A DNA stretch of 7,889 nt from a virus (lineage: Duplodnaviria > Heunggongvirae > Uroviricota > Caudoviricetes). Positions 1-7,889 of this stretch are shown here, piece by piece. The stretch is taken from IMG/VR virus record IMGVR_UViG_2778261509_000002, positions 1 to 7,889 of that record. The stretch is one strand, 5' to 3'. The notes below the pieces were generated by a model, which saw only the letters and a program-made list of their open reading frames with translations, ran no database searches and had not been told where the DNA came from. A program made the position numbers and the translations under genes. Positions within the stretch are counted from its first letter, which is position 1. Each line of letters begins with the position of its first letter.

Positions 1-384
1 ATTGGCGGCAACCCGGAAACCGCCATGATAATTGGCAGCCTGTGGAGTGATGCCAGTCCGGCCCCCGGCAAAAGCCCGAAAGAAATCGTGGTCAGCGCGC
101 CGGACGGCGCGGTGTTCCGCTACGACGCGGACGCAGGCGCGCTGAGCGCCAGCGGCATGAAAACAGCCACCCTGCAGGCATCCGTCAGCGTGACACTGGA
201 CGCGCCCGTCGTGGAATGCACAGACCTTCTGAGAACAGCGACGCTTGACGTCACAAAAGGGGGAAAGATGAGCGGCAATATCACGCACAGCGGCGGCGAT
301 TTCACCTCAAACGGCATCACAGTGCATACGCATAAACACGGTGGCGTTAAAGGTGGCAGCGATTCGACAGGAGGCCCGCAGTGA
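1..384 (+). CDS. V: Baseplate central spike protein, P2 gpV-like (5'-truncated by window edge; C-terminal part only)
   Basis: Frame of the listed ORF 25..384 is open back to position 1 (IGGNPETAM...), so the gene starts upstream of the window. C-terminus carries an HTHKH motif typical of the HxH apex of gpV/gp5-type spikes. Position immediately upstream of W-J-I-H matches P2 order. Stop TGA 382-384 overlaps the W start. Confidence 0.8.
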   Translation: MGGNPETAMIIGSLWSDASPAPGKSPKEIVVSAPDGAVFRYDADAGALSASGMKTATLQASVSVTLDAPVVECTDLLRTATLDVTKGGKMSGNITHSGGDFTSNGITVHTHKHGGVKGGSDSTGGPQ

Positions 385-731
385 CAACCCGCTACACAGG
401 AATGAACCCGGACGGGACGGGAAACCTGAACGATATGGAGCACCTGAAACAGTCAGTCAGGGACATCCTGATCACCCCGCTGGCAAGCCGGGTTATGCGA
501 CGGGAATATGGCAGCCTTGTGCCTGATTTAATTGACGAACCCATGAATAACACCACGCGTCTGCAATGCATGAGTGCTGCCGTGATTGCGCTGACACGAT
601 GGGAACCCCGCATTGCCCTGGATGCCATCGACGTTGTCTGGAAGGCAGGAGGCCGCGCCGGGGTGACGCTGTCGGGCACTGTCATGCAGACCATGCAGAA
701 TGTTGAATTAACCATCACGCTAAGGGAGTAA
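381..731 (+). CDS. W: Baseplate assembly protein W (P2 gpW / T4 gp25-like)
   Basis: 116-aa ORF starting at GTG 381, preceded by AGGAGG at 369-374. GTGA overlap with the V stop suggests translational coupling. Size and sequence character (MTTRYTGMN..., RVMRREYGS) fit the gpW family as recalled. Synteny V-W-J-I. Confidence 0.85.
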   Translation: MTTRYTGMNPDGTGNLNDMEHLKQSVRDILITPLASRVMRREYGSLVPDLIDEPMNNTTRLQCMSAAVIALTRWEPRIALDAIDVVWKAGGRAGVTLSGTVMQTMQNVELTITLRE

Positions 732-734
732 ATC

Positions 735-1631
735 ATGCCCGCCGTTGACCTTTCACAGTTACCGGACCCCGCCATCATCGCGGAGCCTGACTTTGAGGCA
801 ATTCTGGCTGACACAAAGGCCATGATGATTGCGGCTTATCCCGCCGAACAGCGTGAAGCCGTCTCCGCCGCGCTGGAGCTGGAATCGGAACCCCTGAACG
901 TTATCGCTCAAACCATGTCGTTTCGTGAAATGCTGTTACGCCAGCGGGTTAACGAGGGCGCACGCGCCTGCATGTTGAGCCACAGCACCGGAACAGACCT
1001 GGACAACCTCGCGGGCAATATGAACACAAAGCGCCTGGTTATCACTCCGGCAACGGATACCACCGACGCGGTGATGGAAAGCGACACCTCGCTGAGACTG
1101 CGGGCGCAACGGGCGTACGACGGCCTGAGTGTTGCTGGCCCGTCAGGTGCATACGAGTATTTTGCCCGCAGCGCCAGCGGTCTGGTGCGTGATGCGCGGG
1201 CTATCAGTCCGTCTCCGGCAAATGTGACGGTTTCCATCCTGTCCACTGAAGGCGACGGCACAGCAACGGAGGCGTTGCTTAATACCGTTCGCGCCGTTCT
1301 GAATGCAGAGGATACCCGCCCGGTGGCCGACCGCCTGACCGTACAGAGTGCCAGAATCGTGACATGGCGGCTGAATGCAAAACTGTACTTTTACCCCGGC
1401 CCGGAATCCGAACCTATTCTGGCCGCGGCTGAATCGTCGTTCAGGAAGTGGCTGGCTGAGCAGGGGCTTATCGGTCAGGACGTGGCGTTGTCCGCCATTG
1501 CTGCCGCACTGCATGTGCACGGTGTGCAACGCGTGGAGATAACCGAACCCACACAGAATATGGCCATCAGCGACATACAGGCGGCGCGCTGTGAGTCGTT
1601 CACCATCAGCGAAGGTGGGCGCAATGAGTAA
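735..1631 (+). CDS. J: Baseplate assembly protein J (P2 gpJ-like wedge protein)
   Basis: 298-aa ORF with ATG 735 preceded by AAGGGAG at 722-728. Conserved stretches recalled from P2 gpJ (LESEPL, RQRVNE, GLSVAG, RPVADRVTVQSA, LY.YPGPESEPI, HVHGVQRVE). 3' end overlaps the I start in ATGAGTAA. Confidence 0.9.
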   Translation: MPAVDLSQLPDPAIIAEPDFEAILADTKAMMIAAYPAEQREAVSAALELESEPLNVIAQTMSFREMLLRQRVNEGARACMLSHSTGTDLDNLAGNMNTKRLVITPATDTTDAVMESDTSLRLRAQRAYDGLSVAGPSGAYEYFARSASGLVRDARAISPSPANVTVSILSTEGDGTATEALLNTVRAVLNAEDTRPVADRLTVQSARIVTWRLNAKLYFYPGPESEPILAAAESSFRKWLAEQGLIGQDVALSAIAAALHVHGVQRVEITEPTQNMAISDIQAARCESFTISEGGRNE

Positions 1632-2154
1632 TTCACTGTTACCACCATCAGCCAGCAGTTTCATGCGTTGTGCCGAAGCTGTCGGAACGCGCATTACAGA
1701 CATCCCGGTAGACCTCAACACGCTGTGGTCGCCGGACACCTGCCCGGTGCACCTGCTGCCTTATCTCGCCTGGGCATTTTCCGTTGACCGTTGGGATCGC
1801 AACTGGCCGGAAGAGGCAAAACGACAGGTGATTCGTGATGCATGGCTGATACACCGACACAAAGGGACCATCAGCGCACTGCGCAGGGCCATTGAGCCGC
1901 TGGGATACCTCATTCGCGTGTCTGAGTGGTGGGAGTTCGGCGGAGAACCGGGAACATTTACCGTTGAAGTCGGCACACTGGACAGTGGCGTGACGGAGGA
2001 AATGTATCTGGAAATGGAGCGGTTGATTGCTGATGCCCGTCCGGTCAGCCGCCACATGACAGGGCTGAATATCATTCAGGAAATTCCGGGGGATATTTTT
2101 GCAGCGGCGGCAACTTATGACGGTGAAGTTATTACCATTTATCCGGACGATTAA
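1624..2154 (+). CDS. I: Tail protein I (P2 gpI-like baseplate protein)
   Basis: The track ORF begins at 1591, but the internal ATG at 1624 (MSNSLLPP...) overlaps the J stop as ATGAGTAA, as in P2. The protein has the gpI hallmark LAWAFSVDRWD and EMERLIADA. Start choice 1624 versus 1591 is uncertain. Confidence 0.85.
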   Translation: MSNSLLPPSASSFMRCAEAVGTRITDIPVDLNTLWSPDTCPVHLLPYLAWAFSVDRWDRNWPEEAKRQVIRDAWLIHRHKGTISALRRAIEPLGYLIRVSEWWEFGGEPGTFTVEVGTLDSGVTEEMYLEMERLIADARPVSRHMTGLNIIQEIPGDIFAAAATYDGEVITIYPDD

Positions 2155-2156
2155 GC

Positions 2157-4451
2157 ATGAGTACCACAACACGAAAATTTAAAACCGTTATCACCGATAC
2201 AGGTGCCAAAAAATTAGCTCAGGCAGCCGCGCCAGATGGTAAGCCTGTTCGCCTGACTCATATGGCCGTGGGCGACGGTGGCGGCACGTTGCCCACACCA
2301 GACAGTAAGCAGACCCGTCTGGTGCATGAGGTGTGGCGACACACAGTTAATCGCGTCATCCTGGACGCAACACATCAGAACCGCATTATTGCGGAGCTGG
2401 TTATTCCTCCTGAAACGGGCGGATTCTGGATCCGGGAAATTGGTGTATTTGATGAGCACGGCGATTTAATCGCGGTGGGCAATACTGCCGAAAGTTACAA
2501 GCCAGCCGTTGCTGAAGGGTCCGGTCGTGCACAAACATTTCGCACCATTCTGACCGTATCCAGCACGGCCACCGTGGCGCTTACCGTGGATAACACCATG
2601 GTGATGGCCACAGTGGATTACGTGGATGACAAACTGAAAGAGCATGAACAGTCACGACGTCACCCGGACGCCTCGCTGACCGCAAAAGGCTTTGTTCAAC
2701 TCAGTAGCGCCACTAACAGCGTGTCTGAAACGCAGGCTGCAACGCCGAAAGCGGTTAAGGCCGCATATGACCTGGCTAACGGAAAATATACCGCTCAGGA
2801 CGCCACGACGGCACGAAAAGGCCTTGTCCAGCTCAGTAGCGCCACCAACAGCACGTCTGAAACGCAGGCTGCAACGCCGAAAGCAGTAAAGGCCGCGTAT
2901 GACCTTGCTAACGCAAAATATACCGCTCAGGACGCCACGACGGCACAAAAAGGGATAGTCCAGCTCAGTAGTGCCACCAACAGCACGTCTGAAACACTGG
3001 CCGCGACATCGAAAGCGGTTAAGGCGGTAATGGATGAAACGAACAAGAAAGCGCCCTTAAACAGTCCTGCGTTGACCGGAACGCCAACAACGCCAACTGC
3101 GCGACAGGGAACGAATAATACCCAAATCGCAAGCACGGCTTTCGTTATGGCTGCGATTGCCGCCCTTGTAGATTCGTCACCTGACGCACTGAATACGCTG
3201 AACGAGTTAGCGGCGGCGCTGGGAAACGACCCGAATTTTGCGACCACCATGACTAACGCGCTTGCGGGTAAGCAACCGAAAGATGCCACCCTGACGGCGC
3301 TGGCCGGGCTTGCTACTGCGGCAGACAAGTTTCCGTATTTTACGGGGAATGATGTCGCCAGCCTGGCAACCCTGACAAAAGTCGGGCGGGATATTCTTGC
3401 GAAATCGACCGTTGCTGCCGTTATCGAATACCTCGGTTTACAGGAAACGGTAAACAGGGCTGGTAACGCCGTGCAAAAAAATGGCGATACCTTGTCCGGC
3501 GGGCTTACTTTTGAAAACGACTCAATCCTTGCCTGGATTCGAAATACTGACTGGGCGAAGATTGGATTTAAAAATGATGCCGATGGTGACACTGATTCAT
3601 ACATGTGGTTTGAAACAGGCGACAACGGCAATGAATATTTCAAATGGAGAAGCAAACAAAGCACCACAACAAAAGACCTGATGAATCTTAAATGGGATGC
3701 TTTGTATGTTCTTGTTAAAGCTCTTTTCAGCAGTGAAGTAAAAATATCGACAGTCAATGCACTGAGGATATTTAATTCATCTTTTGGTGCCATTTTTCGC
3801 CGTTCTGAAGAATGCCTGCATATCATCCCTACACGAGAGAATGAGGGGGAAAATGGTGATATAGGGCCACTACGTCCCTTTACGCTTAATCTCAGAACTG
3901 GCCGCATAACTATGGGGCATGGTCTGGATGTTACAGGAGATATAACAACTAACGCCTGGGTGTATGCAAACAGGTTTGCTATTAATAGTGGCTCAACCTC
4001 ATGGATTGATATGCGAAACCAGAATGTCATTTTTGGTAGAAACGCAGTATCAACAAGTTCTGCGCAGGCTTTGTTAAGACAAGACCATGCAGAACGCAAA
4101 TTTTTTGTCGGTGGACTTGGTAACTACCAGTTTGGTTTTTACATGATTAATAACTCAAGGACAGCCAATGGCACCGATGGTCAGGCGTACATGGACAATA
4201 ACGGTAACTGGCTTTGTGGCTCGCAAGTTATTCCTGGCAACTATGGCAATTTTGATTCCAGATATGTGAGAGATGTTCGCCTGGGTACGCGAGTTGTTCA
4301 ATTGATGGCGCGTGGTGGTCGTTATGAAAAAGCCGGACACGCAATTACCGGATTAAGAATCATTGGTGAAGTAGATGGCGATGATGAAGCCATCTTCAGG
4401 CCAATACAAAAATACATCAATGGCACATGGTATAACGTCGCACAGGTGTAA
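2157..4451 (+). CDS. H: Tail fibre protein (P2 gpH-like); constant N-terminal part (aa 1 to about 426) fused in this orientation to a P2-H-like receptor-binding C-terminal part
   Basis: 764-aa ORF starting 2 nt after the I stop. N-terminus (TVITDTGAKKLAQA..., IAELVIPPE.GGFW.RE.G, TVMATVDYVDDK) is gpH-like. Contains VQLSSATNSTSET..TPKAVK fibre-shaft repeats. C-terminus ends ...INGTWYNVAQV. Crossover site L lies in-frame at codons of about 422-430 (VIEYLGLQE). Confidence 0.9.
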   Translation: MSTTTRKFKTVITDTGAKKLAQAAAPDGKPVRLTHMAVGDGGGTLPTPDSKQTRLVHEVWRHTVNRVILDATHQNRIIAELVIPPETGGFWIREIGVFDEHGDLIAVGNTAESYKPAVAEGSGRAQTFRTILTVSSTATVALTVDNTMVMATVDYVDDKLKEHEQSRRHPDASLTAKGFVQLSSATNSVSETQAATPKAVKAAYDLANGKYTAQDATTARKGLVQLSSATNSTSETQAATPKAVKAAYDLANAKYTAQDATTAQKGIVQLSSATNSTSETLAATSKAVKAVMDETNKKAPLNSPALTGTPTTPTARQGTNNTQIASTAFVMAAIAALVDSSPDALNTLNELAAALGNDPNFATTMTNALAGKQPKDATLTALAGLATAADKFPYFTGNDVASLATLTKVGRDILAKSTVAAVIEYLGLQETVNRAGNAVQKNGDTLSGGLTFENDSILAWIRNTDWAKIGFKNDADGDTDSYMWFETGDNGNEYFKWRSKQSTTTKDLMNLKWDALYVLVKALFSSEVKISTVNALRIFNSSFGAIFRRSEECLHIIPTRENEGENGDIGPLRPFTLNLRTGRITMGHGLDVTGDITTNAWVYANRFAINSGSTSWIDMRNQNVIFGRNAVSTSSAQALLRQDHAERKFFVGGLGNYQFGFYMINNSRTANGTDGQAYMDNNGNWLCGSQVIPGNYGNFDSRYVRDVRLGTRVVQLMARGGRYEKAGHAITGLRIIGEVDGDDEAIFRPIQKYINGTWYNVAQV
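2685..3030. repeat. In-frame 132-bp (44-codon) direct tandem repeat inside H: two full copies plus a diverged partial third copy
   Basis: The motif aaaagg...cagctcagtagcgcc recurs at 2684, 2816 and 2948 (period 132 nt). Protein copies are KGFVQLSSATNSVSETQAATPKAVKAAYDLANGKYTAQDATTAR, KGLVQLSSATNSTSETQAATPKAVKAAYDLANAKYTAQDATTAQ and KGIVQLSSATNSTSETLAATSKAVKAV.... The right boundary is approximate. Confidence 0.9.
3421..3446. repeat. Crossover site L for the DNA invertase (gix/pix/cix/hix-like 26-bp site), embedded in the H coding sequence
   Basis: TTATCGAATACC-TC-GGTTTACAGGAA: two 12-bp half-sites around a 2-bp core. Closely matches the gix sequence as recalled (TTATCCAAAACC TC GGTTTACAGGAA). 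It is the inverted partner of site R at 6492-6517. Confidence 0.8.
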
Positions 4452-4982
4452 ATGATGCAGCATTTAAAAAATATTAAGTCTGGAAATCCTAAAACGAAAG
4501 AACAATATCAGCTAACAAAGAATTTTGATGTTATCTGGTTATGGTCCGAAGACGATAAAAACTGGTATGAGGAAGTGAAAAACTTTCAGCCAGACACAAT
4601 AAAGATTGTTTACGATGCAAATAATATTATTGTCGCCATCACTAAAGATGCCTCCACGCTTAACCCTGAAGGTTTTAGCGTCGTTGAGGTTCCTGATATT
4701 ACAGCCAACCGCCGCGCTGATGATTCAGGAAAGTGGATGTTTAAGGATGGAGCTGTAGTTAAACGGATTTATACGGCAGACGAACAGCAACAACAAGGCG
4801 AATCACAAAAGGCCGCATTGCTTTCCGAAGCTGAATCAGTCATCCAGCCGCTGGAACGCGCTGTCAGGCTGAATATGGCAACAGACGAGGAACGCACACG
4901 ACTGGAAGCATGGGAACGCTACAGTGTTCTGGTCAGCCGTGTGGATACGGCAAATCCTGAATGGCCACAAAAGCCTGAATAA
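4452..4982 (+). CDS. G: Tail fibre assembly chaperone (P2 gpG / Mu U / Tfa family), expressed partner of the current fibre C-terminus
   Basis: 176-aa ORF whose ATG directly abuts the H stop (TAAATG). Size and position match Tfa proteins. N-terminal two-thirds closely similar to the convergent second copy at 5011-5544. Confidence 0.85.
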
Positions 4983-4987
4983 AAATT

Positions 4988-5007
4988 AAGGCCCGCGATC
5001 GGGCCTT
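4988..5007. terminator. Hairpin between convergent tfa genes; likely intrinsic terminator (U-tract best on the - strand)
   Basis: Perfect 8-bp stem aaggcccg / cgggcctt with 4-nt loop cgat. On the - strand the stem is followed by AATTTTTATT. On the + strand the downstream tract (GTCTCATTC) is weaker. Confidence 0.6.
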
Positions 5008-5010
5008 GTC

Positions 5011-5544
5011 TCATTCAGGTTGTTCGGGAAATGTTACTGGCAGGCTGGAGGTGTCTGTAGATTCGACTTTCTGCGCATAGAGCATCCACTCGGTTAATTT
5101 TTGTTTATTCTCGTCGGAAATGATGCCCAGCCGTAGCTGTGAGTCCCATAGCTGGGTTTTATCCCTAACGAGCTGTAGCAGGCTTTGCTTTTCATTTTCC
5201 GCCTGCTGCCTCTGCTCTTCCTCGGTATAAGTTCGCTTTACCACTACGCCATCTTTGAACATCCATTTACCAGAAATATCAGCCCGGCGATTTGCTGTAA
5301 TATCAGGAACCTCAACGACGCTTGCGCCTTCTGGATTAATTGCTGAAACATCCTTTTCAATACAAATAATAACGTTGTTGTGGTCATAGACCATTTTCAA
5401 CGTATCAGGCTGAAAGTTCTTTTGTTCCTCATACCAGTTTTTCCCATCCTCTGTATAAAGCCATTTGATGTTAAATTGTTTCGTTAGCTGGTATTGCTCT
5501 TTTGTTTTAGGGTTGCCAGCAGTAATATTTTTTAAATGCATCAT
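5011..5544 (-). CDS. Alternative tail fibre assembly chaperone (Tfa', Mu U'-like), cognate to the silent fibre cassette
   Basis: 177-aa ORF on the - strand with GGGGAG 9 nt upstream of its ATG. N-terminal about 110 aa parallel the + strand Tfa ([21 protein letters not shown]..., [30 protein letters not shown]); the C-terminal third diverges. Confidence 0.8.
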
Positions 5545-5546
5545 AA

Positions 5547-6500
5547 TTAAATACTCCCCGCGTTATACCACGTCCCATTAATGCAATACTGAATTGGCCT
5601 TGCCTGAGTTGTATCAATTAATTCATCACGGTTTCCGTTAACTGAACCCGTAACGACATAACCTGACCTGTCAGACCAGCCGGGACCATTCCATGTCTGA
5701 ACAGATGACAGACCGCCAAGGCGAATACCTGTAATAAACCTTGAGTTACATTCTGCCTGCGTGTATGCACCAACATCTCCCGCAGAGGGTTTGCGGGTCG
5801 TGGTGTAAAACTCTGACCAGTTAGCCTCAAATCCATAACCATCACGCGCTGAACGATAAAAAATACCGCCGTTCCTGTAATTCACGCGGAACTGTACAGC
5901 AGGGCAGCTCCCCGTATTCATATTGAAGTGGAGGATTAATGTCGATGCACCGCTGATATCTGCATCATAAACACCGCTATTCCAGTTCCAGCCAACAGCT
6001 TTATCATTTGCAACCCTGCTTCCTGTTTGCCCTAAAGCAAATGCAGGCTGCTGGTTTTTCGTGTTGTAGTCTCGTCGCCAGCCGGGGGCATAAGCATCAC
6101 CATGATCAATATAAGTGAATTGAGCGTTAGTAATTCCGCCACCGCTGGACGTGCTCGGCGTGGTAACGCGTATGGTCATTGCGCCGCGGGTTCCCATAAC
6201 CTCAATCACGGCTCCGGCAAGGCAGATATTTCCACAACCGGTATCCGTAATAACCCTGTTTCTGGCATAGGACCATGACCCTTTACACATCCAGTATGGA
6301 TGTCGGAAAGCTCCGTTATTCTCCAGCCACGAGATAAATGCAACTGTCGACCATGCACCTTGTGAACCATCGATATCAGTCTGACCGCTAAATGCACGAC
6401 AGGCCCCTGTGTTTTGTATGAATTTATCTTTATTCGGAATATCTGCACCGTTCTGGTTTTTCTGTAATGCGCCAGAAGCCTGATTTACCGTTTCCTGCAA
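5547..6500 (-). CDS. Promoterless alternative tail-fibre C-terminal cassette (H'v, Mu S'v-like); would be fused to the H constant region after inversion
   Basis: Open frame on the - strand running from site R to a TAA 2 nt upstream of tfa'. Its first codons ([15 protein letters not shown]) parallel H residues just after site L (LQETVNRAGNAVQKN). It ends ...[11 protein letters not shown], like H. There is no ATG or RBS; the track's M is a TTG inside the crossover site. Confidence 0.75.
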
Positions 6501-6517
6501 ACCGAGGTTTTAGATAA
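6492..6517. repeat. Crossover site R for the DNA invertase (gix/pix-like), inverted relative to site L
   Basis: TTCCTGCAAACC-GA-GGTTTTAGATAA. Its reverse complement TTATCTAAAACC-TC-GGTTTGCAGGAA matches site L at all but about 3 positions and keeps the same 2-bp core. Confidence 0.8.
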
Positions 6518-6571
6518 TGGCCGTTTCTGACCTGCATGGCATGATTTACGCTTTTGGACGGGAGATTCAGC

Positions 6572-7159
6572 GTGCTGATTGGCTATGTAAGGGTATCAAC
6601 AAATGACCAGAATACAGACCTGCAACGAAACGCTCTTGTTTGTGCAGGATGTGAACAAATATTTGAAGATAAATTAAGCGGGACAAAGACAGACCGACCG
6701 GGATTAAAACGCGCTTTAAAGCGCCTTCAACAAGGTGACACGCTGGTTGTCTGGAAACTGGATCGCCTCGGGCGAAGCATGAAACATCTGATTTCTCTCG
6801 TCGGGGAACTACGGGAGCGAGGGATTAATTTTCGCAGTCTGACCGACAGCATAGATACATCTTCTCCAATGGGGCGTTTTTTCTTCCACGTGATGGGTGC
6901 CCTGGCTGAAATGGAACGTGAATTAATTGTTGAACGTACACTGGCCGGACTGGCAGCAGCGCGCGCACGGGGGCGCACAGGCGGACGTCGCCCGAAGCTG
7001 ACAAAAGAACAGCATGAGCAAATAGCAAGGCTGATTAAAAACGGTCACGACAGAAAACAACTGGCAATAATTTACGGCATTGGTACATCGACGATTTATC
7101 GTTACCACCCCGCAGGAGAATCAAGCGGAACAATAGAGAAGAGTCAGAAAACAAAATAA
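6572..7159 (+). CDS. Serine site-specific DNA invertase (Gin/Pin/Cin/Hin family)
   Basis: N-terminus from GTG 6572 reads MLIGYVRVSTNDQNTDLQRNAL..., the family signature with the catalytic Ser in RVSTNDQ. Further conserved blocks: GDTLVVWKLDRLGRSMKHL, INFRSLTDSIDTSSPMGRFFFHVMGALAEMERELIVERT, GRTGGRRPKLT and a C-terminal HTH (IYGIGTSTIYRY). GGGAGA lies 7 nt upstream of the GTG. The track's TTG start at 6554 adds 6 non-conserved residues and is probably not used. Confidence 0.95.
   Translation: MLIGYVRVSTNDQNTDLQRNALVCAGCEQIFEDKLSGTKTDRPGLKRALKRLQQGDTLVVWKLDRLGRSMKHLISLVGELRERGINFRSLTDSIDTSSPMGRFFFHVMGALAEMERELIVERTLAGLAAARARGRTGGRRPKLTKEQHEQIARLIKNGHDRKQLAIIYGIGTSTIYRYHPAGESSGTIEKSQKTK
6593..6655. 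promoter_or_regulatory. Putative Fis-dependent recombinational enhancer (sis-like) inside the 5' end of the invertase gene
   Basis: Two G-N13-C 15-mers, GTATCAACAAATGAC (6593-6607) and GTGCAGGATGTGAAC (6641-6655), with centres 48 bp apart. Position corresponds to the enhancer within the 5' coding region of hin/gin as recalled. Inference from family knowledge only. Confidence 0.4.
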
Positions 7160-7186
7160 CCGCTAATCTGACCATTAGCGGTTTTT
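7159..7186. terminator. Bidirectional intrinsic terminator between the convergent invertase and gpU-like genes
   Basis: 9-bp stem accgctaat / attagcggt with 6-nt loop ctgacc, followed by TTTTTGTGTT on the + strand. On the - strand it is followed by TTATTTTGTTTT. Confidence 0.7.
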
Positions 7187-7194
7187 GTGTTAAA

Positions 7195-7689
7195 TCAGAA
7201 CAGCCCTTTAACGGAGCTGGCCGCGCTGTTAAGAGATGATGTCACCTTATCTTTGAAGCCGGACAGCATATCGCTGAACGATGAGGATTGCAGGCGCTCC
7301 CGCAAATCCTCATCACAGCGTTCAAGGGTCAGTGAAAATTCTATCTTTTTCGCCTTACCGTAGCGATCAAACTCGGAACGGGTCGTATTCGTTCCGGTCA
7401 GGACATACATGCCGTAAATCTGCCCGACGCCATCAATCAAAGGCCAGGGTCGTCCTGTATACGCCTGCGTGGTCAGCAGCGACAGCGATACTTCGCCACC
7501 TGTAATTTCAGGATAAAGCACACCAGAAAGAACGATGCGATCATCACCTGCACCGATATACTGCCAGCTTGCTGAACGGTTAACGCGTTCATTTTTCACA
7601 TGCCGCCAGCTTTTGTTTTGCTGTAACTGCTGATGCGGCAGCGTGCGCAGCTCAAAAACAAACATGCCGTAGATCATCATCATGGCCAT
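7195..7689 (-). CDS. Phage tail protein, P2 gpU-like (family assignment from recalled motif pattern)
   Basis: 164-aa ORF on the - strand. The pattern GMFVFELRT...SWRH..N.RV.R...WQY.G.G.D.I.LSGVLYPE.TGG...L.......G.PWPL.DG.G...GMYV......T.SEF...G...KIEFSL.LER resembles the GpU family as I remember it. GAGGAG sits 8 nt upstream of the second in-frame ATG (7683), so the true start may be 7683 rather than 7689. Confidence 0.55.
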   Translation of the reverse strand: MAMMMIYGMFVFELRTLPHQQLQQNKSWRHVKNERVNRSASWQYIGAGDDRIVLSGVLYPEITGGEVSLSLLTTQAYTGRPWPLIDGVGQIYGMYVLTGTNTTRSEFDRYGKAKKIEFSLTLERCDEDLRERLQSSSFSDMLSGFKDKVTSSLNSAASSVKGLF

Positions 7690-7695
7690 GACTCC

Positions 7696-7889
7696 TCAAT
7701 CTTTATCGTAAAAACTGCCACGCCCGGCACGGGCGCGCCGTTCCATTTCTGCCCTGACCATTTCACCGACCAGTTTCGCCAGTTCGCGGGGATTCTGTGT
7801 AACAACGTTATGCAGATGAACATGAATTTCACCGCCAAATCCGGAGGCAACAGGCTCCCGGTTACGGGAAGTTGCAGGAACTGATGCCA
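7696..7889 (-). CDS. 3' end of an upstream - strand phage gene (possibly tape-measure gpT-like by position); start lies outside the window
   Basis: Manual translation of the - strand gives an open frame ending ...GEIHVHLHNVVTQNPRELAKLVGEMVRAEMERRARAGRGSFYDKD with stop TGA at 7698-7696, 6 nt before the gpU-like start. Function is inferred only from its position upstream of the gpU-like gene. Confidence 0.3.
   Translation of the reverse strand, partial: ASVPATSRNREPVASGFGGEIHVHLHNVVTQNPRELAKLVGEMVRAEMERRARAGRGSFYDKD

Follow-up and report, generated by a model that had tools for sequence, protein, structure and literature searches.

The gene order at the right end of this sequence is an ordinary one that is already represented in annotated phage genomes. 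The window, by which we mean the whole stretch of 7,889 nucleotides that was analysed, carries the tail-fibre end of a P88-like temperate phage (Xuanwuvirus-type, Peduoviridae), and its arrangement is normal for that lineage; we put the probability of this reading at roughly 90%. The initial annotation had raised the possibility of a rearranged or degraded prophage with a possibly non-functional tail. That reading is unsupported, because intact plaque-forming phages and about 45 prophages share the convergent layout. The annotation itself had considered that intact relatives might show the same convergent order as their normal organisation, and P88, PhiSM and SEN4 do.

Of the P2-like Peduoviridae late gene set (V, W, J, I, H, a fibre chaperone, FI, FII, E/E', T, U, D and ogr), the window itself holds the genes from V to H, both chaperones, U and the end of T (Table 1). 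Compared with Escherichia phage P88 (Xuanwuvirus), its DNA is 95.5% identical with 100% of the window covered; membership in Xuanwuvirus goes by high nucleotide identity over the genome, and this comparison spans the 7.9-kb window only, that being the whole contig. The gpU assignment was borne out by a profile search. Pfam Phage_P2_GpU (PF06995) matched the ORF from end to end, over profile positions 1-120 of 120 (E 1.5e-38; 131.5 bits, cut-off 27.5), and PHROG 76 'tail protein' matched it at 8e-75. The protein is 100% identical to P88 gp44; no NCBIfam model reported it. The gene upstream proved to be the end of the tape-measure gene T. Its DNA is 98.8% identical to the end of the annotated P88 tape-measure gene (28101-30908, carrying PF10145) and it gave PHROG matches at 5e-39, while a Pfam search with the 68-aa translation of positions 7686-7889 gave no match. 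On the minus strand T stops at 7696 and U starts at 7689, which places gpU directly downstream of T, in agreement with the P88 annotation.

Table 1. Features of the 7,889-nucleotide window.
Feature	Coordinates	Strand	Evidence
gpV baseplate spike gene, 3' part, truncated by contig end	1..384	+	Pfam Phage_spike/Apex on product called in L070; colinear with P88 gp35
gpW (gp25-like baseplate wedge)	381..731	+	PF04965, E 6e-13
gpJ baseplate protein	735..1631	+	PF04865, E 3e-19
gpI tail protein	1624..2154	+	PF09684, E 1e-50; start as called in L070
Tail fibre gene (H/S type)	2157..4451	+	PF12571, PF03406, PF21446
Left gix-type crossover site, TTATCGAATACCTCGGTTTACAGGAA	3421..3446	.	Sequence reading; within inverted repeat I2
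Tail-fibre assembly chaperone, in currently expressed orientation	4452..4982	+	PF02413, E 1e-36
Alternative tail-fibre assembly chaperone	5011..5544	-	PF02413, E 4e-37
Alternative fibre C-terminal segment (Sv'-type), without own N-terminus	5547..6500	-	gp37_C, weak; matches to S' fragment annotation in Mu, D108, P7
Right gix-type crossover site, TTCCTGCAAACCGAGGTTTTAGATAA	6492..6517	.	Sequence reading; inverted repeat I2
Gin/Cin/Pin-type serine DNA invertase, 195 aa	6572..7159	+	PF00239 (Resolvase) E 2e-50; PF02796 (HTH_7) E 7e-14; PHROG 125 'DNA invertase' 4e-97
Two-way intrinsic-terminator-like hairpin, common to invertase gene and T-U operon	7158..7183	.	Terminator scan matches on both strands; folding
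gpU tail protein, last gene of inverted F operon, 164 aa	7195..7689	-	PF06995; PHROG 76; P88 gp44
Tape-measure gene T, 3' end (63 codons plus stop), truncated by contig end	7696..7889	-	Translation; P88 alignment; PHROG

The local layout described initially was confirmed in full: the gpU gene and the gene upstream of it lie on the opposite strand and converge on the invertase, with one bidirectional terminator-like element at the junction. The hairpin at 7158-7183 has a 10-bp stem, is preceded by an A-run and followed by a T-run, and received a terminator-like score on both strands. It folds at -15.7 and -16.9 kcal/mol (z -3.6 and -3.8), a stability reached in 0 of 200 shuffles. Many related loci have GC hairpins past the gpU stop, several of them with flanking A and T runs. 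Motif geometry, conservation and the analogy with P2 suggest that the hairpin would act as a terminator. It was also correct that no D-like gene follows U within the window; no D-like ORF lies anywhere in it. The window departs from the P2-type F operon in two respects. Past the U stop comes not D on the same strand but a convergent invertase stop after a spacer of 35 bp, and U and T lie on the minus strand whereas V to G lie on the plus strand.

The whole arrangement can be read in P88. Its minus strand between 27600 and 33175 carries U, T, E', E, FII and FI. D (PF05954) lies directly past FI on the plus strand at 33333-34433, and an unannotated Ogr-like ORF follows at 34476-34736. Head, lysis, baseplate, fibre, D, ogr and int are all in P2 orientation, and only FI-FII-E-E'-T-U is flipped. 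The same order is repeated in E. coli prophage L002, PhiSM, L068 (99.3% identical to the window), SEN4 and Klebsiella Kp4860-2. Pfam domains for FI, FII, E', T, D and Ogr were found in both L068 and P88, and a gene without a Pfam match is present at the E position in both. The RefSeq call of D in L002 is shortened; we considered whether this D is damaged and rejected it, as the translation is an intact 369-aa reading frame. Phages with this order are viable. P88 makes plaques and its virion has been seen by electron microscopy (PMC5285337), PhiSM makes plaques and lysogenises K-12 (PMC6456863), and SEN4/5 makes plaques and has myovirus morphology (PMC5261728).

These genomes bear on the explanation that D was lost or the tail genes were scrambled in this strain, leaving no working tail. 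What recommends strain-specific decay is the window itself, a short contig with no D gene and with flanks beyond reach. However, the window is the entire contig NLPY01000100.1, so that the missing D is uninformative about the parent genome. Two contigs with longer flanks match the window at 99.3-99.7%, and they have the same junction together with intact FI, FII, E, E', T, U, D and ogr. D is in place in these near-identical contigs as it is in P88, contrary to the idea that it had been lost. The identical junction of invertase, hairpin, U and T occurs in the plaque-forming P88 and PhiSM. Among 5,426 complete E. coli genomes, 133 contain 80% or more of the window. The window's ORFs are all full length when compared with P88, and its gpU is that of P88. 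On these grounds decay is very unlikely, and the near-identical contigs suggest that the source prophage was probably complete as well.

The inverted order is not confined to these close relatives. It was found in about 45 prophages of about 18 enterobacterial genera, most of them without an invertase; the hosts include Salmonella, Serratia, Enterobacter, Kosakonia, Pantoea, Klebsiella, Edwardsiella, Morganella, Providencia, Photorhabdus, Xenorhabdus and others. All loci with a gpU at least 55% identical read ogr-, D-, FI+, FII+, T+, U+, H-, I-, J-, W-, V-, the order being scored wherever the genes were detectable in the fetched stretch, and an invertase adjoins U at only about nine of them. 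Where gpU is 39-45% identical, at loci from Halomonas, Acinetobacter, Idiomarina and Chitinimonas, the order is colinear. The colinear P2 order is likewise kept in P2, the invertase-bearing P2-like phage of strain T22, SopEPhi, Klebsiella Gegavirus, a Yersinia phage and phiCTX. In the FI (sheath), U and D trees the inverted loci all fall in one clade, these being simple neighbour-joining trees without support values for phages whose modules recombine. The most economical reading would be a single origin, in which the F operon was inverted once, long ago, and D stayed where it was.

The initial annotation was thus right to see an inversion behind the non-P2 order, but it named the wrong unit: the FI-FII-E-E'-T-U block was flipped instead of the fibre/invertase module. 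That the module rather than the tube block had been inserted or inverted has some appeal, in that the cassette of fibre C-terminus, chaperones and invertase is a mosaic, 91-96% identical to Mu, D108, P1 and P7, and was exchanged horizontally. Yet V, W, J, I and H lie on the strand of the head and lysis genes, D and ogr, as they do in P2, and only FI...U is opposite; the convergent order is also found in clade members without the cassette. We consider an origin through the module exceedingly improbable.

The cassette belongs to the Gin/Cin/Pin/Hin systems, since a serine recombinase with a C-terminal HTH adjoins a segment bounded by inverted 26-bp sites. The left gix-type site equals the reverse complement of the right one at 23 of 26 positions, and the right site has one mismatch to the P88 site. 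The arms of inverted repeat I2 span 3417-3481 and 6457-6521. The 3' part of the fibre gene (3421 onward) is within the invertible segment. Window 3421-6951 aligns with the G segment plus gin of Mu at about 91% identity, and 3483-6470 aligns with the C segment of P7 at 96%. For 6400-6951, which includes gix-R as well as the initial two thirds of gin, the DNA identity to Mu is 90.6%. The longest invertase ORF begins with TTG at 6554; the true start is probably the GTG at 6572, which gives the 195 aa called in P88 and L070.

The inverted block has an active-looking Gin-type invertase exactly at one of its ends, and this enzyme might be thought to flip the tail block, either as a programmed reversible switch or in a one-off event at secondary sites. 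We regard this as extremely unlikely. The two gix-type sites of P88 are its only ones and both flank the fibre segment; the FI-D and U ends of the block have none. The loci of the clade, about 45 in total, are all in one orientation, most without an invertase beside U. Colinear P2-like phages (the T22 phage and the SopEPhi remnant) have an invertase at the same position without any inversion. No inverted repeats flanking the FI-U block were found in P88. A reversible inversion mediated by the invertase or by repeats was therefore rejected, as P88 has neither extra gix-like sites nor inverted repeats at the ends of the block. Instead, the Mu/P1-like invertible fibre cassette and its invertase are a separately exchanged module that is at the junction by chance and is not the cause of the arrangement.

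An old inversion of the F operon would account for the layout. An ancestor of the lineage would have flipped the segment from the pF promoter through gene U, with D and ogr unmoved. This has three results. U is now the last gene in its operon, converging on the fibre operon (or on the invertase if present) and meeting it at a predicted two-way terminator. D is uncoupled from U and lies back-to-back with FI. The spacer between FI and D, 158-217 bp long, appears to serve as a late promoter in both directions. In relatives it contains one conserved activator-type site, TGT-N12-ACA, with -10-like hexamers 34 nt off on both sides. Of 21 non-redundant FI-D spacers, all from relatives outside the window, 18 have an nAnnAT hexamer at a distance of exactly 34 nt from the dyad on the FI side and 17 have one on the D side; other offsets gave counts of 0-4. 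An exact search for TGT-N12-ACA in P88 gave no match at the late regions, and an alignment of 38 spacers placed the P88 dyad at 33255-33272 as TGT-N12-AGA, one mismatch from the consensus. The candidate -10 hexamers of P88 are GATGAT (33215-33220, minus strand, FI side) and GACCAT (33307-33312, D side), and the predicted late starts lie near 33206-33208 and 33319-33321, respectively. The annotated pF of P2 has the same dyad, a 35-nt spacer, GAAAAT and a start site 7-9 nt beyond. The P2 record also gives a single activator site (3057-3087) for pP (+1 at 3016) and pO (+1 at 3127). The relatives' spacers have the make-up of an Ogr/Delta-dependent two-way late promoter of the P2 pP/pO type, namely a single TGT-N12-ACA-type dyad flanked on either side, at about 34-35 nt, by a -10 element.

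Motif geometry, conservation and the analogy with P2 thus point to a promoter role for the FI-D spacer. One Ogr/Delta site would lie about 55 bp upstream of both predicted starts and would drive FI...U one way and D-ogr the other, much as the single annotated P2 site does for P and O. This predicted two-way late promoter is the apparent source of D expression. We lean towards the view that the symmetric late activator dyad let the F-operon inversion be tolerated and fixed in a large enterobacterial clade of P2-like phages and tailocin-like prophages: with the flipped pF beside D, a new -10 hexamer would have been all that the Ogr-bound site needed to drive D-ogr the other way, creating a second two-way late promoter of the pP/pO style. 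A search of non-subscription literature found no explicit description of the F-operon inversion or of a shared FI/D promoter, an absence that is weak evidence.

The P2 gene order is unsuited as a template for judging the intactness of P88-like prophages. Judged by it, an entire clade of functional phages would come out as "rearranged" or "missing D", and some tailocin clusters in Photorhabdus, Xenorhabdus and Kosakonia would probably be mis-flagged in the same way. The P88 clade would also provide a tidy example of an operon inversion that keeps correct late regulation through one shared symmetric activator site, as predicted here.

Among known systems, P88 (NC_026014) and Citrobacter PhiSM are the closest, with the same gene order including the junction. 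P88 differs from the window by about 4.5% sequence divergence, mostly in the fibre region, while the organisation is alike. Salmonella SEN4 (Senquatrovirus) and Klebsiella Reginaelenavirus prophages share the inverted FI-U block and the D gene divergent from FI and belong to the one clade in the FI, U and D trees. By contrast, their gpU is only 53-62% identical, and the SEN4 junction is without an invertase or an invertible fibre segment. The fibre alternatives, two chaperones, gix sites and invertase are those of the Mu G segment with Gin and the P1 and P7 C segment with Cin (91-96% DNA identity). In Mu and P1, however, the cassette lies at the genome end or in another tail-gene context, whereas here it has been joined to an H gene of the P2 type and borders directly on the end of U.

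P2 and a P2-like Peduovirus (NC_001895; NC_041848 from E. coli T22) share this late gene set (V W J I H G, FI FII E E' T U, D, ogr), and the T22 phage likewise combines an invertible fibre segment with an invertase past G. The late promoter type of P2 is the same, with a TGT-N12-ACA site centred near -55. The difference lies in the order. In P2 the genes from V to ogr are on one strand, and FI...U-D-ogr form one operon downstream of G in which U and D overlap by one base. In the P88 lineage FI...U is inverted, D has been separated from U and diverges from FI, and U runs up to a predicted terminator that faces the fibre module. A regulatory parallel is pP/pO of P2, where a single activator site serves two back-to-back late promoters with starts about 55 bp on either side, just as the P88 clade has one dyad and two -10-like hexamers. 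The P2 pair lies at another place in the genome and serves other genes, whereas the FI-D promoter of the P88 clade, for the sheath operon and D-ogr, is predicted.

The Pfam assignments for the genes of the window were all as expected. The 164-aa protein matched Phage_P2_GpU at E 1.5e-38 (131.5 bits against a cut-off of 27.5), which confirms by profile search that it is gpU. Its upstream neighbour matched two PHROG families (about 5e-39), and positions 6400-7889, 98.8% identical to Escherichia phage P88, lie under the P88 annotation "tail tape measure protein"; by homology, this cut-off gene is the tape-measure gene T. No D-like gene was found in the window. The stops of the invertase gene and gpU are 35 bp apart, and between them lies a hairpin (7158-7183) with a 10-bp stem and, at its opposite edges, an A-run and a T-run. 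On both strands the hairpin scored as terminator-like; its folding energies are -15.7 kcal/mol (z about -3.6) and -16.9 kcal/mol (z about -3.8). The initial annotation, which described gpU and its upstream gene converging on the invertase across one bidirectional terminator, with D absent, was thus correct in every particular. Within the fibre gene, an overlapping tandem duplication (2666-2893 and 2798-3025, 87% identical) corresponds to the three Phage_fiber_2 repeats.

Features of the window and of the U to Ogr-like region of phage P88
Sequence	Feature	Position	Strand	Remark
Window	gpV 3' end, gpW, gpJ, gpI, 764-aa tail fibre gene, fibre-assembly chaperone		+	in that order
Window	26-bp crossover sites	3421-3446 and 6492-6517		
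Window	Second chaperone and alternative fibre C-terminal segment		-	
Window	Serine invertase	stop 7159	+	Resolvase and HTH_7 domains (Pfam)
Window	164-aa gene, gpU	stop 7195	-	Phage_P2_GpU over full profile
Window	Gene T (tape measure)		-	last 63 codons, runs off window end
P88	U, T, E', E, FII (tube), FI (sheath)	27600-33175	-	
P88	D, 366 aa	33333-34433	+	Phage_GPD domain; directly beyond FI
P88	Ogr/Delta-type zinc-finger ORF, 86 aa	34476-34736	+	after D; unannotated

The entire window aligned with positions 20406-28294 of P88 (Xuanwuvirus, Peduoviridae) at 95.5% identity, and among 5,426 complete genomes of E. coli, 133 carried at least 80% of it. The same fibre protein occurs on longer contigs of two other assemblies, 99.3% and 99.7% identical over the full window. 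On the former, the sheath, tube, E-position, GpE (E' product), tape-measure and GpU genes all lie on one strand, with GPD and Ogr_Delta opposite; the E-position gene had no Pfam match. The P88 layout was also found in Citrobacter phage PhiSM and in an E. coli chromosomal prophage, which is bounded by its integrase gene on one side and by raiA of the host on the other. The window is the whole of contig NLPY01000100.1 (7,889 bp) in draft assembly GCA_002231095.1. Both of its ends fall within conserved P2-type genes, V and T, suggesting that the assembly broke where further P2-like prophages in this genome repeat the sequence.

For D of the E. coli chromosomal prophage (L002, 32922-34031), RefSeq has a shortened 267-aa protein and an opposite-strand pseudogene; the frame is intact despite this call, with the full 369 aa uninterrupted. 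In the RefSeq record of P88, the label "head closure" stands on the tube protein FII and "baseplate hub" on gpX; in the record of PhiSM, D is named "ogr" and the sheath "late control gene D". A P88-like prophage with a gpU 97% identical to that of the window also appears on a contig attributed to a Firmicute, "Vagococcus sp. WN89Y" (NZ_JBQPOM010000071.1); this assembly is probably contaminated or mislabelled.

In P2 the order is G, fun(Z), FI, FII, E, E', T, U, D, ogr, and all genes past fun(Z) lie on a single strand. Relative to one another, the head, lysis, baseplate, fibre, D, ogr and int genes are oriented in P88 as they are in P2, so gene order identifies FI-FII-E-E'-T-U, not the fibre/invertase module, as the flipped unit. 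Downstream of G, a P2-like phage of E. coli T22 carries the fibre inversion cassette with an invertase, but its FI to U, D and ogr are still colinear. A search of P88 for inverted repeats and gix-type sites gave no trace of an inversion mechanism: no inverted repeats were found flanking the FI-U block, and the only two gix-type sites lie at the bounds of the fibre segment.

A gpU protein scan, with one genome per bacterial species, gave 55 loci, and tblastn was used to place V, W, J, I, H, invertase, FI, FII, T, U, D and ogr at every locus. Wherever the genes were detectable, all loci with gpU at least 55% identical had ogr and D on the minus strand, then FI, FII, T and U on the plus strand, then H, I, J, W and V on the minus strand. 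The hosts were Salmonella, Serratia, Enterobacter, Kosakonia, Trabulsiella, Symbiopectobacterium, Mixta, Pantoea, Izhakiella, Kluyvera, Klebsiella, Yokenella, Edwardsiella, Citrobacter, Morganella, Providencia, Photorhabdus and Xenorhabdus. A reversible, invertase-driven flip of the FI-U block is contradicted by this uniform orientation. Since the invertase adjoins U in only about nine of the inverted loci, the convergent arrangement is independent of it. Loci with gpU 39-45% identical (Idiomarina, Acinetobacter, Chitinimonas, Halomonas) were colinear and P2-like, as were SopEPhi, a Klebsiella Gegavirus, a Yersinia phage and phiCTX. All inverted genomes, SEN4 and the Klebsiella Reginaelenavirus Kp4860-2 among them, formed a single clade in neighbour-joining trees of FI, gpU and gpD, with phiCTX as the root. 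The most economical reading is a single old inversion that a large enterobacterial clade has inherited; this is likely rather than proven, because the trees carry no support values and these phages are mosaic.

The arrangement had been taken as a possible sign of a rearranged or degraded prophage. Three demonstrably viable phages share the inverted order, the very outcome that the initial annotation had named as refuting this reading. Induction of strain K88 yielded P88, which forms plaques, has been imaged as a tailed virion and changed its host range when its fibre was engineered (PMC5285337). PhiSM lysogenises E. coli K-12, is released spontaneously and forms plaques (PMC6456863). Salmonella phage SEN4/5, also inverted as in P88, is plaque-forming with myovirus morphology (PMC5261728). 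The convergent order is therefore not a defect and has no implication for tail function. The PhiSM tail was described by TEM as long, non-contractile and Siphoviridae-type (PMC6456863), at odds with the P2-type sheath, tube and baseplate encoded in its genome; either a different particle was imaged or the tail type was misread.

The suggestion that the fibre/invertase module had been inserted holds in part. Identity to the Mu G segment plus most of gin is about 91% over positions 3421-6951, and identity to the P7 C segment is 96% over 3483-6470; the cassette is a horizontally exchanged host-range module grafted onto a P2-type fibre gene. It does not, however, explain the convergent orientation. 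In Trabulsiella odontotermitis (L010, about 10000-16500), U is followed by an opposite-strand invertase, gpI and a fibre gene on the strand of U, and a second invertase, which may reflect a larger flip, bounded by invertases, of the fibre/baseplate end, or else two elements side by side.

Overall, the convergent arrangement is real but ordinary, being the standard, already sequenced and annotated layout of a known genus and a much wider clade. The one modestly new point is the putative combination of a clade-defining F-operon inversion with a common symmetric activator site that would serve it. A search of non-subscription literature found no published discussion of this, which is weak evidence.

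After the inversion, U is the final gene of its operon, with a hairpin as putative terminator; in the window this hairpin is common to the gpU operon and the invertase gene. Many clade members have a GC-rich hairpin of variable sequence 3' of the U stop, flanked in several by A and T runs, and these hairpins may act as terminators. The last structural gene of the P2 F operon is D, which overlaps U by 1 base; once U had been inverted away from it, D would need its own promoter. Aligned FI-D spacers from 38 distinct loci (158-217 bp) had one conserved core in common, a TGT-N12-ACA-type dyad (TGT-N12-AGA in P88, 33255-33272). In a set of 21 representatives with pairwise identities below 85%, an nAnnAT hexamer sat at a distance of exactly 34 nt from the dyad, on the FI side in 18 and on the D side in 17, against counts of 0-4 at every other offset from 24 to 45. 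Colinear relatives had the -10 element on the FI side only, one chance match aside. The annotated P2 promoter pF shows this geometry too, with dyad TGTGCTGTCGATTAGCCA, a 35-nt spacer, GAAAAT and a mapped start 7-9 nt further on. From the dyad, the -10-like geometry on both sides and the parallels with pF and pP/pO of P2, we infer a second two-way late promoter of the pP/pO type, dependent on Ogr, in the FI-D spacer of the P88 clade; it would transcribe FI to U in the direction of the window and D-ogr in the opposite direction. At P/O, the divergent terminase/scaffold region of P88, a single TCT-N12-ACA site (14216-14233) is followed by ACAAAAGC, the flanking motif of the FI/D site, with -10-like hexamers about 34-35 nt off on each side. 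This repetition of motif and spacing suggests that P88 has two two-way late promoters. In the P2 record, one activator-binding site (3057-3087) is annotated for both pP (+1 at 3016) and pO (+1 at 3127), about 55 bp to either side.
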